DNA from: a virus
Reading direction: 5' to 3' (one strand)
DNA length: 64,000 bases
Virus record (IMG/VR): IMGVR_UViG_3300035698_017437
Location: 32,001-96,000 of that record
A model generated the notes under the pieces. It was not told where the DNA came from and did no database searches. It worked only from the letters and a program-made list of their open reading frames with translations. How positions within the stretch are numbered: the first letter of the stretch is position 1; the number at the start of each line of letters is the position of its first letter. Both the position numbers and the translations under genes were made by a program. This document shows positions 8,158-40,683 of this stretch, piece by piece.

Positions 8158-9228
8158 ATGAGTAATTTTTTGAAAGGAATGTTGAAATCTACAGGAAATA
8201 TATATGGCGGAATAGCATCTGAAGGATTAGTTGCTGGAGATATCACAGGATATCTTGATACAGGATCGTATCGTCTAAATGCTCTTGTCTCTGGATCTGT
8301 GTTCAAAGGTTGGCCACGAGGTAAAATTAGTATCCTTGGAGCACCTTCAGGAACAGGAAAAACCTTTTTACTTTTATCAGCTATCAAAGAGTTTCTAAAT
8401 GCTGAACCTGATGGAGCTGTTATTCTTTTTGAATCTGAATCAGCTCTTACAAAAGATATGCTAGTTCAAAGAGAAATTGATATTGATAGAGTTTTGATTT
8501 TACCTATTGTAACTGTGGAGGATTTGAAATTTCAAGCAGTTTCTATTATAGATAGATATCAAGCAACTCCAGAAGATGAAAGAATTCCTATTCTCCTTGG
8601 TCTTGATTCAATAGGTATGTTATCAACAGAAAAGGAAATTGGTGATGCTTCTGATGGAAAGGCTACTTTAGATATGACCCGAGCAAAAATGCTCAAAGCA
8701 GTATTTCGTATCCTTACTTTGAAATTGGGTCTATGTGATATTCCTTTCTTAGCCACCAATCATACTTACCAGGAACTTTCCCTCTATCCTAAAACCATCC
8801 AAAGTGGAGGAACAGGATTAGTTTATGCTGGAAGTACAATAATGGCGTTTTCTAAGGCCCAAGAAAAAGAAGGAAAGGAAAAAGTTGGGGCGATAATCAC
8901 AGCAACTCTTCAGAAAGGTCGTCTAACAAAAGAAAACTCTAAAGGTAAATGTCTTATCAATTTTGAAAATGGTTTAGATCGTTATTTTGATTTGATTGAA
9001 CCAGCCGTGGAATCAGGAATTTGGCAGAAAGATGGTAAACGTTTTATAACTACTGTAAATGAGAAACCTGTTTGGGCAAAGACTATAGCTAAAGATCCTG
9101 AAACATATTTTACCAAAGAAGTATTAGAAGCTATTGATAAAGTTTTAGCGAGACAATACCTTTATGGAATAACTAAAACAGAAGATGAAAATTTTGATGA
9201 ATTAGATGGAGAAGAAATTGACCACTGA
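8158..9228 (+). CDS. uvsX: RecA-like recombinase UvsX
   Basis: GAPSGTGKT, DSIGMLST, DMTRAK, NHTY, SGG. Confidence 0.93.
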   Translation: MSNFLKGMLKSTGNIYGGIASEGLVAGDITGYLDTGSYRLNALVSGSVFKGWPRGKISILGAPSGTGKTFLLLSAIKEFLNAEPDGAVILFESESALTKDMLVQREIDIDRVLILPIVTVEDLKFQAVSIIDRYQATPEDERIPILLGLDSIGMLSTEKEIGDASDGKATLDMTRAKMLKAVFRILTLKLGLCDIPFLATNHTYQELSLYPKTIQSGGTGLVYAGSTIMAFSKAQEKEGKEKVGAIITATLQKGRLTKENSKGKCLINFENGLDRYFDLIEPAVESGIWQKDGKRFITTVNEKPVWAKTIAKDPETYFTKEVLEAIDKVLARQYLYGITKTEDENFDELDGEEIDH

Positions 9229-9874
9229 TAATGGAAGAATAGAAACTATTATCATAAATCAACTCATATTCAATCGGGAATATTTCTCCAAATGTGTACC
9301 TTTTATCTCAGAAGAGTATTTTGACCTCAGACCAGAAAAGATAATTGTCAAACATATTGAATCATATTTTCAGAAATATGATTCAAGGATTCCTGATCCT
9401 TCAGTTCTGAAAGTGATGTTAGAACAAGATACCACTATTGGAGAGAAAGAAATTGGAGAAATAAATGAATATGTTGATAATCATTGTTCCTCTACAGGAA
9501 AATATGATTATGACTGGTTATTGATAGAAAGTGAATCCTTTTGCCAAGAGAAAGCAGTTTATAATGGTATAGTTGATTCTATCAATATTATTGAAGGAAG
9601 AGACAAGAATAGGAATAAAGAGGGTATTCCTGAAATATTGAGCGATGCCCTTGGTGTTAATTTTGATGTGAATATTGGACATGATTATTTTGGTCATGCT
9701 AAAGAAAGATTTGAATCTTATAATAATGCTGAAGCCAAGTTTCCATGTGGTCTAGAAATGATTGATAAAATCACTCATGGCGGGTTTGAGGAGAAGACGA
9801 TAAATCTATTAATTGGGGGCCCTGGCTGTGTTTTTTTCAAGACTAAAATACATGTCAGGATCACTGGGAAATAA
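9206..9874 (+). CDS. gp41: Replicative helicase gp41 N-extein + 15-aa N-intein
   Basis: FCQEKAVYNGI, IGHDYF, KITHGG; breaks in Walker A at GGPG|CVFFKTKIHVRITGK* (Cys1 at 9827). Confidence 0.9.
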   Translation: MEKKLTTDNGRIETIIINQLIFNREYFSKCVPFISEEYFDLRPEKIIVKHIESYFQKYDSRIPDPSVLKVMLEQDTTIGEKEIGEINEYVDNHCSSTGKYDYDWLLIESESFCQEKAVYNGIVDSINIIEGRDKNRNKEGIPEILSDALGVNFDVNIGHDYFGHAKERFESYNNAEAKFPCGLEMIDKITHGGFEEKTINLLIGGPGCVFFKTKIHVRITGK

Positions 9875-10007
9875 TATTTAGTGTATTTCCCTTGTTATCC
9901 ATAATCCAGATGATATGATCATAGTCAAGATCAATACAAAAATTGTGTTTTGCTATGTTCATATCGTAATGTAGTTTTAAGGTCCATTCAGATTTTATTT
10001 CTATCAT
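9861..10007 (-). pseudogene. C-terminal remnant of a PD-(D/E)xK-type homing endonuclease
   Basis: Minus strand reads MIEIKSEWTLKLHYDMNIAKHNFCIDLDYDHIIWIMDNKGNTLNIISQ* inside the split-gp41 gap. Confidence 0.55.
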
Positions 10008-10112
10008 TATCCGGTAGATGAAGATTGTACTTTTGAAGAATTCAAGGAGAGGATGAGTATAATGGCAATTGATTTGATAAAATTTGTTGATAAAAAGCTA
10101 TAGAGATAATAT

Positions 10113-11282
10113 ATGGAAAAAGATATAGAAATACATGAAGTAAAGGAATTGTTGGAACATGGATATAAAGTTGAGGTCTCTTCTCCTAACGGTTTTGTGG
10201 AGATTACAGATTTTATAGAAAAGGGATATTTTGAGGTATATCATCTAAACACTTTCACTAAAAAAATAGGATGTAATATAAATCACAAATGGTTGACTTC
10301 TGAGGGATTCAAGAAAACTTCGGAATTACTAGATGGACCATTTCTTGTTGCTGGAGAGGATGAAAAGTTTATTCCTGCCCATATAACAAAATCTGATAAA
10401 ATAGAAAGGATTGTTGACGTTACAGTTGACCATCCTTCTCATACATATTTCACTGATGGAATCGCAAGCCACAATTCCTGTAAAACTTTGACAATGTGTT
10501 CTATGGCTACTCATTATCTCCAACAGGGATATGATGTCCTTTATATCACCATGGAGATGGCTGAAACCAAAATTGCCTCTAGAATTGATGCCAACTTGTT
10601 GGATGTTGATATCAATCGTGTTACTGGTTTATCTGAACAAGATTTCATGGGAAGAATAAATTTAGTCAAGACGAAAGGTATGGGACAATTAGTTATCAAA
10701 GAATATCCTACTGGCTCTGCTCATTGTGGTCATTTTGATTCATTGATGAAGGAATTGAAGATAAAGAAGAATTTTGTTCCAAAGATTATTTTTGTTGATT
10801 ATTTGGGTATTTGTTCGTCTAAATTAGTATCTCCTACTGTTGGTATGTATTCATATGTAAAGAGTATTGCTGAAGAGTTGAGATCGTTCATGGGTAAACA
10901 TAATGCTGTTGGATTTTCTGTTGCTCAATTCAATAGAGGTGGAACAAATAATACCGATGCTGATTATAGTAATATTGCGGAGAGTACAGGAATCCAACAG
11001 ACGGCAGATTTCATTGCTGGTTTAATCCTTACTGAGGAGCTAGAAGAAAAAAAGGTCATTTTGGTGAAACAAATCAAGAATAGATATGGAGATGTTGCCC
11101 ATTATAAAAAATTCTTGGTTGGTCTTGATAAAACAAGGATGAGAGTATACGACACTGAACAAGATTGGGATGAAGATAATGATTCTGTGGATGATGAAGA
11201 TGATATTCCAGAATTTGACAAGGCAACTAAAGGTAGAACCTTAGAAAAAGATGGACCTATGATGGGTGGAATAAGTTTCTAA
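10113..11282 (+). CDS. gp41: 121-aa C-intein + gp41 C-extein
   Basis: Block B (CNINHKW), block F (VDVTVD), block G GIASHN|S (Asn ends 10475), then CKT, YITMEM, IKEYPT, FVDYL, KNRYG. Confidence 0.92.
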   Translation: MEKDIEIHEVKELLEHGYKVEVSSPNGFVEITDFIEKGYFEVYHLNTFTKKIGCNINHKWLTSEGFKKTSELLDGPFLVAGEDEKFIPAHITKSDKIERIVDVTVDHPSHTYFTDGIASHNSCKTLTMCSMATHYLQQGYDVLYITMEMAETKIASRIDANLLDVDINRVTGLSEQDFMGRINLVKTKGMGQLVIKEYPTGSAHCGHFDSLMKELKIKKNFVPKIIFVDYLGICSSKLVSPTVGMYSYVKSIAEELRSFMGKHNAVGFSVAQFNRGGTNNTDADYSNIAESTGIQQTADFIAGLILTEELEEKKVILVKQIKNRYGDVAHYKKFLVGLDKTRMRVYDTEQDWDEDNDSVDDEDDIPEFDKATKGRTLEKDGPMMGGISF

Positions 11283-11539
11283 CTTCCGTAAATATGAACC
11301 TGAGGATCTTTCACTCCTGTGATTGAGTCCTCAAGTTCATTCCTATGGATAAGCACCTCTCCTTTTCCTGTGGAAAATCTTCCTTCAATAATAATATCTC
11401 CTATATGAACCTTATCGTGACATGAGGAACATATTACGGCTATATTATTGGATGAGTTTGATCCGCCATATCTTTTGGATTGGATATGATGTTTATTTAT
11501 TACCTTGAATTTTTCTGAACAAATTTCACACAAAGACAT
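11279..11539 (-). CDS. Small HNH endonuclease
   Basis: CxxC, HHIQSKRYGGSN..NN, CSSCHDKVH. Confidence 0.8.
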   Translation of the reverse strand: MSLCEICSEKFKVINKHHIQSKRYGGSNSSNNIAVICSSCHDKVHIGDIIIEGRFSTGKGEVLIHRNELEDSITGVKDPQVHIYGS

Positions 11540-38979: not shown

Positions 38980-40683
38980 ATGGACCAACTCCAGAAATAC
39001 ATTCACCTGAGCAAGTATTCCAAGTGGGTAGAAGAATTATTACGACGAGAAACTTGGACAGAAACAGTAGATAGATATATTGATTTCTGGAGAAATAGAT
39101 ATGATCTTTCAAATAATGTCCTAAAAGAAATCCGAAAATCTATATTGAATCTTGAAGTAATGCCTTCCATGAGAGCCTTAATGACCGCAGGCAAAGCTCT
39201 TGAAATTGATAATATGGCTGGTTTCAATTGTACAGCAACAGCAATAAATCACCAAGCTGTCTTTTCTGAAGCTTTTTATATTTTAATGTGTGGATCGGGC
39301 CTGGGATTTTCTGCGGAAAGGCAATACATAAACAAACTTCCTGAAGTAGCTGAAACATTGTATCCATCGGATACAATTATCAATGTAAGAGATTCTAAAA
39401 TAGGTTGGGCTACAGCACTCAAAGAATTGATTTCTTCTCTTTATAATGGAACAATTCCAAAATGGAATCTTGAGAAAATTCGTCCTGCTGGTTCAAGATT
39501 GAAAACCTTTGGGGGTAGGGCATCTGGCCCAGCTCCTCTTGGAAAACTATTCAATCAAGTTGTACAAATATTCAAGGGAGCAACAGGAAGAAAATTGAAT
39601 TCCATTGAATGTCATGATCTGATGTGTTTTATAGCCGATGCTGTAATTGTCGGAGGAGTTAGGAGAAGTTCGTTAATTTCTTTATCAAACTTGACAGATG
39701 ATAGGATGAGAAGAGCAAAGAATGGACAATGGTGGGAGATTAATCCTCAAAGAGCTTTAGCTAATAATTCCGTAGCATACACTGAAAAGCCAGATCTTGC
39801 CGCTTTCTCAAAAGAATGGAGATCTCTATACACATCCAAATCTGGAGAAAGAGGTATATATAATAAAGAACATGCTTATCTAAAATGTGAGGCATTAGGT
39901 AGAACAGAAAATTTCAATGGATCATTTATTCCCAATCCTTGTGCTGAGATATTACTTAGAGACACAGGCGGCGGTTGTAACCTATCTTCTAAAATTATTC
40001 GCCAGAATATCTCATTTCAAGAAATGTTGGATGGATTGAGAATAGCAACTATTATCGGAACACTTCAATCAACTTTGACTGATTTCAGGTTTTTGAGGAA
40101 AGTATGGAAGGATAATTGTGAAGAGGAGCGGCTTTTAGGTGTATCTTTGAATGGAATAATGGATAATAAAATCTTTTCTAATATGGCATCAAGAGAGGAG
40201 TTTGTTGAATTTTCGGGTGATGAATCGCTTGATTGTCTTGCTAAAATCCTTGACCATATGAGAGCTTACTGTAGGACTATAAATGTAAAATGGTCAAAGA
40301 AATTGGGAATAACTCCATCTAAAGCTATAACTACAATAAAGCCAGAAGGCTGTTTGGAAATAGGATCAAAAATACGAACCTCAGAAGGAGCAAAATCCAT
40401 TGAGGATTTTTTCAAGGATTCTGGAATAGATTTACTTTTATTTGAAGGTAGTAAGGATATATGGTTTAAACCCGATATTTCATATAAAGTATACAATCGT
40501 AATAATAAGGAAGTGGATGTGTCAAAATTGTATTATAATGGAATACCTAAAGAAACAGTAAAATTAAATTTTGAGGATGGAACAGAACAAAATGTTACTC
40601 CAGATCACAAGTTTGAGACTATTTCGGGAAAATTTGTGAAGGCTAAAGATCTTACAATGATGGATGATATTAAATCCTTTTAA
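38980..40683 (+). CDS. nrdJ: Class II (B12) ribonucleotide reductase N-extein + 110-aa N-intein
   Basis: RRETW, MPSMRALM, FNC, GGVRRS, NPCAEI, CNL, IKPEG|CLEIGSKI..TPDHKF (Cys1 at 40351). Confidence 0.93.
   Translation: MDQLQKYIHLSKYSKWVEELLRRETWTETVDRYIDFWRNRYDLSNNVLKEIRKSILNLEVMPSMRALMTAGKALEIDNMAGFNCTATAINHQAVFSEAFYILMCGSGLGFSAERQYINKLPEVAETLYPSDTIINVRDSKIGWATALKELISSLYNGTIPKWNLEKIRPAGSRLKTFGGRASGPAPLGKLFNQVVQIFKGATGRKLNSIECHDLMCFIADAVIVGGVRRSSLISLSNLTDDRMRRAKNGQWWEINPQRALANNSVAYTEKPDLAAFSKEWRSLYTSKSGERGIYNKEHAYLKCEALGRTENFNGSFIPNPCAEILLRDTGGGCNLSSKIIRQNISFQEMLDGLRIATIIGTLQSTLTDFRFLRKVWKDNCEEERLLGVSLNGIMDNKIFSNMASREEFVEFSGDESLDCLAKILDHMRAYCRTINVKWSKKLGITPSKAITTIKPEGCLEIGSKIRTSEGAKSIEDFFKDSGIDLLLFEGSKDIWFKPDISYKVYNRNNKEVDVSKLYYNGIPKETVKLNFEDGTEQNVTPDHKFETISGKFVKAKDLTMMDDIKSF

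Follow-up and report, generated by a model that had tools for sequence, protein, structure and literature searches.

According to the account of Neugebauer 2017 and Burton 2020 given in PMC13014065, VidaL is a natural, cysteine-dependent intein that is atypically split after strand beta2 and has an N-terminal intein fragment (IntN) of 16 amino acids (aa); its splicing half-time is about 1 min (PMC13014065). The natural, cysteine-less and likewise atypically split PolB16 OarG intein has an IntN of 15 aa, described as the shortest characterised (PMC10189870), and other characterised short N-fragments are those of AceL-TerL (25 aa) and GOS-TerL (37 aa) (PMC13014065, PMC10189870). In phages, the 'fractured genes' of Dassa et al. 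2009 include gp41-1 to gp41-9, NrdJ-1 and others (PMC2677866). Here we describe a gp41 helicase gene interrupted by a split intein in IMG/VR virus record IMGVR_UViG_3300035698_017437. The window, meaning the whole 64,000-nucleotide stretch that was analysed, comprises bases 32001-96000 of this 141,960-bp record (CheckV completeness 78%). Judged from its sequence and modelled fold, the element is very probably a natural, atypically split class 1 mini-intein of the VidaL family that functions in trans-splicing; the remaining doubt attaches mostly to the possibilities that the allele is defective or that one cysteine codon contains a base error.

The helicase is encoded by two open reading frames (ORFs), the N-ORF and the C-ORF, with the following features in window positions:

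9206..9874, plus strand: N-ORF, 222 aa, made up of 207 N-extein residues (ending in LLIGGPG) and the 15-residue IntN, then TAA
9206..9826, plus strand: N-extein of gp41 (DnaB-like replicative helicase), 207 aa; its last residues, GGPG, form the first half of the Walker A motif
9827..9871, plus strand: IntN CVFFKTKIHVRITGK, 15 aa, with the catalytic Cys1 and the first two intein beta-strands; net charge +4
9872..9874, plus strand: TAA stop of the N-fragment
9875..10112: spacer of 238 nucleotides (nt), 28% G+C, with stops in all three plus-strand frames and no endonuclease gene
10113..11282, plus strand: C-ORF, 389 aa, made up of 121 intein residues and a 268-aa C-extein
10113..10475, plus strand: C-terminal intein fragment (IntC), 121 aa, ending in DGIASHN (His120-Asn121); net charge -9
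10476..10478, plus strand: Ser+1, the C-extein nucleophile, replacing the Val, Ala or Ile of uninterrupted P-loops and aligning with position 364 of phrog_19
10479..10481, plus strand: Cys+2 (TGT; Cys123), replacing the invariant Gly found in Walker A immediately before the P-loop Lys
10476..11282, plus strand: C-extein of gp41, 268 aa and stop, comprising SCKT and 264 further residues; completes Walker A and carries the RecA-like ATPase domain

The preliminary description of this DNA, made from the letters alone, had placed the element at 9827-10478, and this layout is exact, 9827 opening the Cys1 codon and 10478 closing that of Ser+1. Its claim that the break falls inside Walker A (GGPG/.../SCKT, slashes marking splice junctions) is borne out by the ORF coordinates and translations.

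Among solved structures, the best match of IntC is the VidaL intein (6vgv/6vgw; phmmer E 3.6e-9, residues 2-121), followed by weaker matches to the DnaX and DnaB mini-inteins. The C-ORF also matches positions 21-141 of a 141-position profile built from 42 unsplit inteins (E 1.4e-33). Alignment to an intein profile and to a known atypically split intein was the check proposed in the preliminary description, and in both cases IntC matched. The AlphaFold2 model of IntC (pLDDT 92.3) yielded 41 Foldseek matches at E <= 0.001, with VidaL ranked first (TM 0.85, rmsd 1.8 A) and with inteins and intein-like (BIL) domains among the matches listed, indicating a predicted Hedgehog/intein (HINT) fold. The conserved blocks that had been noticed in the second ORF are present, block B as CNINH, block F as IVDVTVDHPSH and block G as SHN/S. 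An alignment of 23 IntC pieces shows no variation at His58 (block B), Asp102 (block F), His120 and Asn121, and almost none at His107 and His110. The +1 nucleophile of the C-extein is Ser122, where relatives use Thr, Ser or Cys. Cys1 is residue 208 of the N-ORF, directly after the last extein residue, Gly207, and this Cys is invariant in 21 aligned N-fragments.

The C-ORF lacks exactly the first 20 positions of the unsplit-intein profile, and the 15-mer at the end of the N-ORF supplies them, matching positions 1-13. The 15-mer resembles the first 13 residues of unsplit relatives; in one of these (L086), an initial Cys-Val is followed by T-K-I-x-V-R-I-T, which spans intein residues 6-13 and is shared with the IntN here, and the sequence runs on into E-K-[ED]-I, which is shared with the IntC here. 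An intein-start motif derived from the unsplit relatives, and present at Cys1 in 36 of 42 of them, has a single match across all six translated frames of the 64 kb, at residue 208 of the N-ORF. The motif match, the unsplit-relative profile and the VidaL register, which comes from an alignment between an unsplit relative and the fused construct of the VidaL crystal structure, agree in identifying the 15-mer as the beginning of the intein (block A), as had been proposed.

The split position is S1, after strand beta2, as described in PMC13014065. VidaL and the intein here share Cys1, the block B His, the terminal HN, the loop at which they are split and a conserved [IV]-R-[LI]-T at IntN residues 10-13, and both are small HINT mini-inteins without an endonuclease domain, with about 27-30% identity to each other. 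However, the break comes three residues after [IV]-R-[LI]-T in VidaL, whose IntN ends in IRLTKKG, and two residues after it here, so that the IntN has 15 rather than 16 aa, and the IntC here starts two residues later. Splicing of VidaL has been measured, whereas the intein here is known from sequence and predicted fold. PolB16 OarG has the same IntN length and the same split after beta2 (PMC13014065), but its host is PolB, it uses Ser1/Ser+1 and its IntC has 168 aa, compared with gp41, Cys1/Ser+1 and 121 aa here, and no match to it was detectable in our sequence searches. As at this locus, the fractured genes of Dassa et al. are essential phage replication genes divided between two ORFs by a split intein, and their gp41-7 likewise has no endonuclease gene (PMC2677866). 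In contrast to the element here, those inteins are split canonically, with a long IntN and a short IntC, and the gp41 inteins among them lie at positions other than Walker A, for example at position 356 of the P-SSM2 gp41 (PMC2677866).

The two exteins account for a complete helicase. The N-extein matches the PHROG family phrog_19, 'DnaB-like replicative helicase', with residues 11-207 on positions 162-363 (E 2e-33), and the C-ORF matches the same family with residues 124-369 on positions 366-596 (E 2.5e-64), as well as Pfam DnaB_C (E 4.4e-12). Ser122 and Cys123 fill positions 364-365, the only two left between the exteins. In all 80 of the nearest uninterrupted gp41 genes, exactly two residues stand between the two extein matches, V, A or I and then G, within G-[TP]-G-x-G-K-[ST]; the N-extein is about 40-43% identical to these 80 IMG/VR genes. 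From this sequence alignment, splicing would yield a 475-residue helicase of normal length. The helicase pieces match genes of cultured T4-like phages that are annotated gp41 or DnaB-like helicase. The 142-kb, 78% complete record contains no DnaB-type helicase gene besides the split gp41, and the earlier suggestion that trans-splicing is essential for replication is a reasonable inference for that reason.

Relatives of the IntC are numerous. An exhaustive search of a library of 1.84 billion cluster representatives gave 163 of them (40 at E <= 1e-10), some in ~600-aa helicases whose intein is unsplit and occupies residues ~205-340 and others in proteins of about 390 aa that start with an intein piece, like the C-ORF here. 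A locus search of IMG/VR with a nine-row alignment found 230 loci encoding an IntC relative; the counts of split and unsplit loci, the spacer range and the P-loop comparison of 80 loci given below refer to the best 80 of these. Both parts are visible in 70 of the 80, with 52 split at the same loop and 18 unsplit. A word-indexed protein search with C-ORF residues 1-140 returned no match, and a single-sequence locus search with IntC found nothing in viral contigs. The N-fragments of the relatives have 16-23 aa (29 distinct sequences), and the IntN here is therefore one residue shorter than any of them. The preliminary description had presented very short N-fragments as a rare class that is useful for chemical synthesis. 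The class is indeed known and valued for peptide synthesis, but its rarity was overrated, as it is common for gp41 in IMG/VR and VidaL has already been solved and is in use as a tool. Four library proteins (P0001, P0013, P0058 and P0085; 700-1150 aa) have a VidaL-like N-terminal piece together with further matched stretches, which suggests that their hosts contain more than one intein or are genes other than gp41 (UvsX-like SGKS exteins and others).

The gp41 VidaL-like inteins of IMG/VR, both split (L095, L111) and unsplit (L086, L143), share with the intein here the host gene, the P-loop, the split loop, the catalytic residues and the charge pattern. They differ in their insertion point. The IMG/VR family members, including L095, L111 and all 80 loci, lie at site A, phrog_19 361/362 (AG/TGVGKS), with the native Thr as +1 residue, whereas the intein here lies two residues downstream at site B, 363/364 (GGPG/SCKT), with its shorter IntN. 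Three library proteins (P0017, P0037 and P0097) are likewise interrupted at site B, and no close relative emerged when P0017 was used as query in a locus search. In a tree of 93 inteins, which resolves poorly inside the gp41 clade, the intein here falls within the gp41 site-A clade (33 rows: 27 of site A, 2 of site B) and apart from a large site-B group, whose exteins differ from the gp41 pattern.

A contiguous intein could in principle be restored if the gene were not truly split, through removal of a self-splicing intron, a frameshift or read-through. Group I introns do occur in T4-like phages, and the RNA of the spacer folds slightly better than shuffled sequences (z = -2.2). However, a scan of 9500-10500 against Rfam at E <= 10 gave chance-level snoRNA and sRNA matches only and no group I or group II intron. 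Six-frame translation shows several stops in each plus-strand frame of the spacer, and therefore no single sequencing slip, such as a miscount in the run of seven T at 9831-9837, can fuse the two ORFs. With an indel in that run, the other two frames from the Cys codon stop after 5 and 17 codons, and the family consensus C-V-x-x-x-T-K-[IV]-x-[IV]-R is matched in the assembled frame alone. Translation of the C-ORF cannot start before the ATG at 10113, because in-frame stops lie two and four codons upstream, and this ATG sits exactly where the C-fragments of the 52 split relatives start. The spacers of these relatives range from a 1-nt overlap (-1) to 1224 nt, and some carry antisense endonuclease-like genes, which intron models do not explain. 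We therefore regard an unsplit gene as highly improbable. No terminator-like site was found between the two ORFs, and blastn and tblastx comparisons revealed no likeness of the spacer to the relatives' spacers or to the rest of the window. A hairpin, GGGAAAUA...UAUUUCCC (9866-9891, plus strand), spans the TAA stop of the N-fragment.

If the intein is split as we propose, the two genes would be translated separately, probably from one transcript, and the basic tail of the N-ORF product would dock on the acidic IntC, supplying Cys1 and the first two beta-strands of the HINT fold. Cys1 would then form a thioester with Gly207, Ser+1 would take over the N-extein, and cyclisation of Asn121 followed by an O-to-N shift would release the 475-residue helicase with the P-loop GGPG-SC-KT. 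Association of the fragments, splicing and activity of the product are inferred. The net charges of the fragments are opposite, +4 for IntN and -9 for IntC, as they are in the relatives (+2 to +7 for IntN, and -7 to -17 for IntC in 18 aligned IMG/VR C-fragments). A complex prediction for the N-ORF tail with IntC lends weak support to association, with a score of 0.45 compared with 0.01 for the best of three controls; a like complex, that of VidaL, has been solved, and the pass may reflect memory of it. Of 80 solved complexes, 58 reached the mark used for such predictions, as did 2 of 110 mismatched pairs, and scores past the mark but no higher than 0.60 came from 7 of those 80 complexes and from both passing mismatches. 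In the prediction runs, at least 56% of the contacts agreed and the partner pLDDT was at least 44.

Several observations weigh against a functional split intein. When searched alone with a 13-column hidden Markov model of the intein start, the 15-mer scored only 6.9 bits (E ~1), which is not significant, an expected outcome given its length. Upstream of the C-ORF start at 10113, the ribosome-binding site is weak (GAGA). No near-identical contig was found in the viral and metagenome collections, and both the split and the cysteine after Ser+1 rest on one assembly. A back-translated junction pattern, DGIASHNSxKTLTMC, had no match in viral and metagenome contigs, and a search of metagenomes with the whole C-ORF locus gave a best relative just 45% identical and no independent assembly of the phage. 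A further point concerns the cysteine itself. The preliminary description had predicted a spliced P-loop reading GGPGSCKT, with Cys at the usual Gly, and the sequence bears this out. The canonical GxxxxGK[ST] would be absent from the spliced product, where Cys123 precedes the Lys. The Gly before the Lys is present in 80 of 80 uninterrupted gp41 genes, in 80 of 80 of a further set, in 80 of 80 intein-bearing loci and in all exteins of the GK[ST] type among the library matches, so that the Cys of this gene stands against a Gly in several hundred relatives. In P-loop NTPases, the Gly before the Lys is needed for the shape of the loop, and the Cys-bearing product might therefore be a poor ATPase. 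Cysteine is tolerated at the neighbouring variable position of the P-loop (Val in most), and at the invariant Gly it is found only in this gene. The split gp41 genes L123, L140 and L142, with similar IMG/VR loci, form a group whose C-extein reads TGCGKS, retaining the Gly before the Lys.

One explanation for the cysteine is that the split intein is genuine and the allele defective, the Gly-to-Cys change, perhaps together with a shortened IntN, leaving the helicase inactive or barely active; the record would then represent a crippled genome or a minor variant. The invariance of this Gly in all relatives examined, the lack of an independent assembly and the incompleteness of the record, at only 78%, are in keeping with such a defect. 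Nevertheless, both ORFs are otherwise intact across 611 codons, every catalytic residue of the intein is retained, the extein is ordinary in all other motifs, and the record contains no second helicase gene that could serve as a replacement. A metagenome consensus, moreover, usually represents the dominant, viable genotype, and we consider a defective allele quite unlikely. Alternatively, the codon could be a base-call or assembly error, with GGT recorded as TGT and the true junction being an ordinary site-B HN/SGKT. TGT is a single transversion away from GGT, and the remaining inteins inserted at this point are all followed by [S/T/C]-G-K-[S/T], but substitution errors are rare in an assembled consensus and nothing else in either ORF looks damaged. 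Such an error, which we judge unlikely, would leave the conclusion of a split intein intact.

It is also conceivable, although we see this as a slim prospect, that the P-loop Cys is real and functional. It lies two residues from the splice junction, where it might form a disulfide with the catalytic Cys1 in the assembled precursor and make maturation of the helicase redox-gated; or the helicase might work with an unprecedented GxxxxCK[T] Walker A motif. A P-loop intein under redox control is known from a mycobacterial DnaB (PMC6195587). If the Cys is functional, it would tie an intein shifted by two P-loop residues to a change in the most conserved motif of its host enzyme. Apart from this one oddity, the element is a real and fairly ordinary new relative of VidaL.

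In the model proposed for the origin of fractured genes, a free-standing endonuclease gene enters the coding region of an intein (PMC2677866). Many of the gp41 relatives in IMG/VR keep an antisense HNH-like ORF in their spacer, and several of the long spacers hold such an ORF of about 220-230 aa, with the HNH-like motif recognised by eye; Pfam found no family at E <= 0.01 in two of these ORFs. By analogy, these endonuclease-like spacer ORFs fit the fractured-gene model. In contrast, the spacer here contains no endonuclease ORF, its largest ORF being one of 48 aa on the minus strand without a PHROG match, and it would represent a later stage, like that of gp41-7 (PMC2677866). By comparison with these loci, the split most likely goes back to an unsplit ancestor in which the loop following strand 2 was invaded by a free-standing endonuclease gene; this gene would later have disappeared, and the 238-nt spacer would be what remains.

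The gene content of the window is T4-like, and the phage is uncultured. Two genes flank the split helicase:

8158-9228: UvsX (Pfam RecA-like), directly upstream of the helicase N-ORF
11279-11539, minus strand: HNH endonuclease ORF, 86 aa (Pfam HNH, E 1e-9; several PHROG HNH families)

The HNH ORF lies outside the break, tail-to-tail with the C-fragment of the helicase, whose stop codon it overlaps. It has a weak blastp match (E ~0.02) to the antisense HNH-like ORFs inside the intein break of the relatives, and may be a relocated or truncated homing endonuclease of the locus.

Natural split inteins with an IntN short enough to be synthesised are sought for protein semisynthesis and labelling, and only a handful have been characterised (PMC13014065, PMC10189870). 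A 15-residue Cys1/Ser+1 variant with the junction residues G/C ... N/SC could extend the range of exteins that VidaL-family inteins tolerate. The locus also offers an example of insertion-site drift, with one intein lineage inserted at two points of the same P-loop that lie two residues apart, and, beside its unsplit and endonuclease-bearing relatives, it illustrates how splitting can come about by the 'fractured gene' route. Current understanding of the working of such elements is unchanged by it.

A second gene in the window also appears to be fractured:

38980-40683, plus strand: B12-dependent ribonucleotide reductase (Pfam RNR-II_ins_dom and Ribonuc_red_lgC), ending in TTIKPEG/CLEIGSK and an IntN of about 100 aa
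40863-41519, plus strand: next ORF, 179 nt further on, with an IntC of about 37 aa ending in GCVSHN/TSS

By analogy with the inteins of Dassa 2009, this pair looks like a canonically split intein of the NrdJ type.

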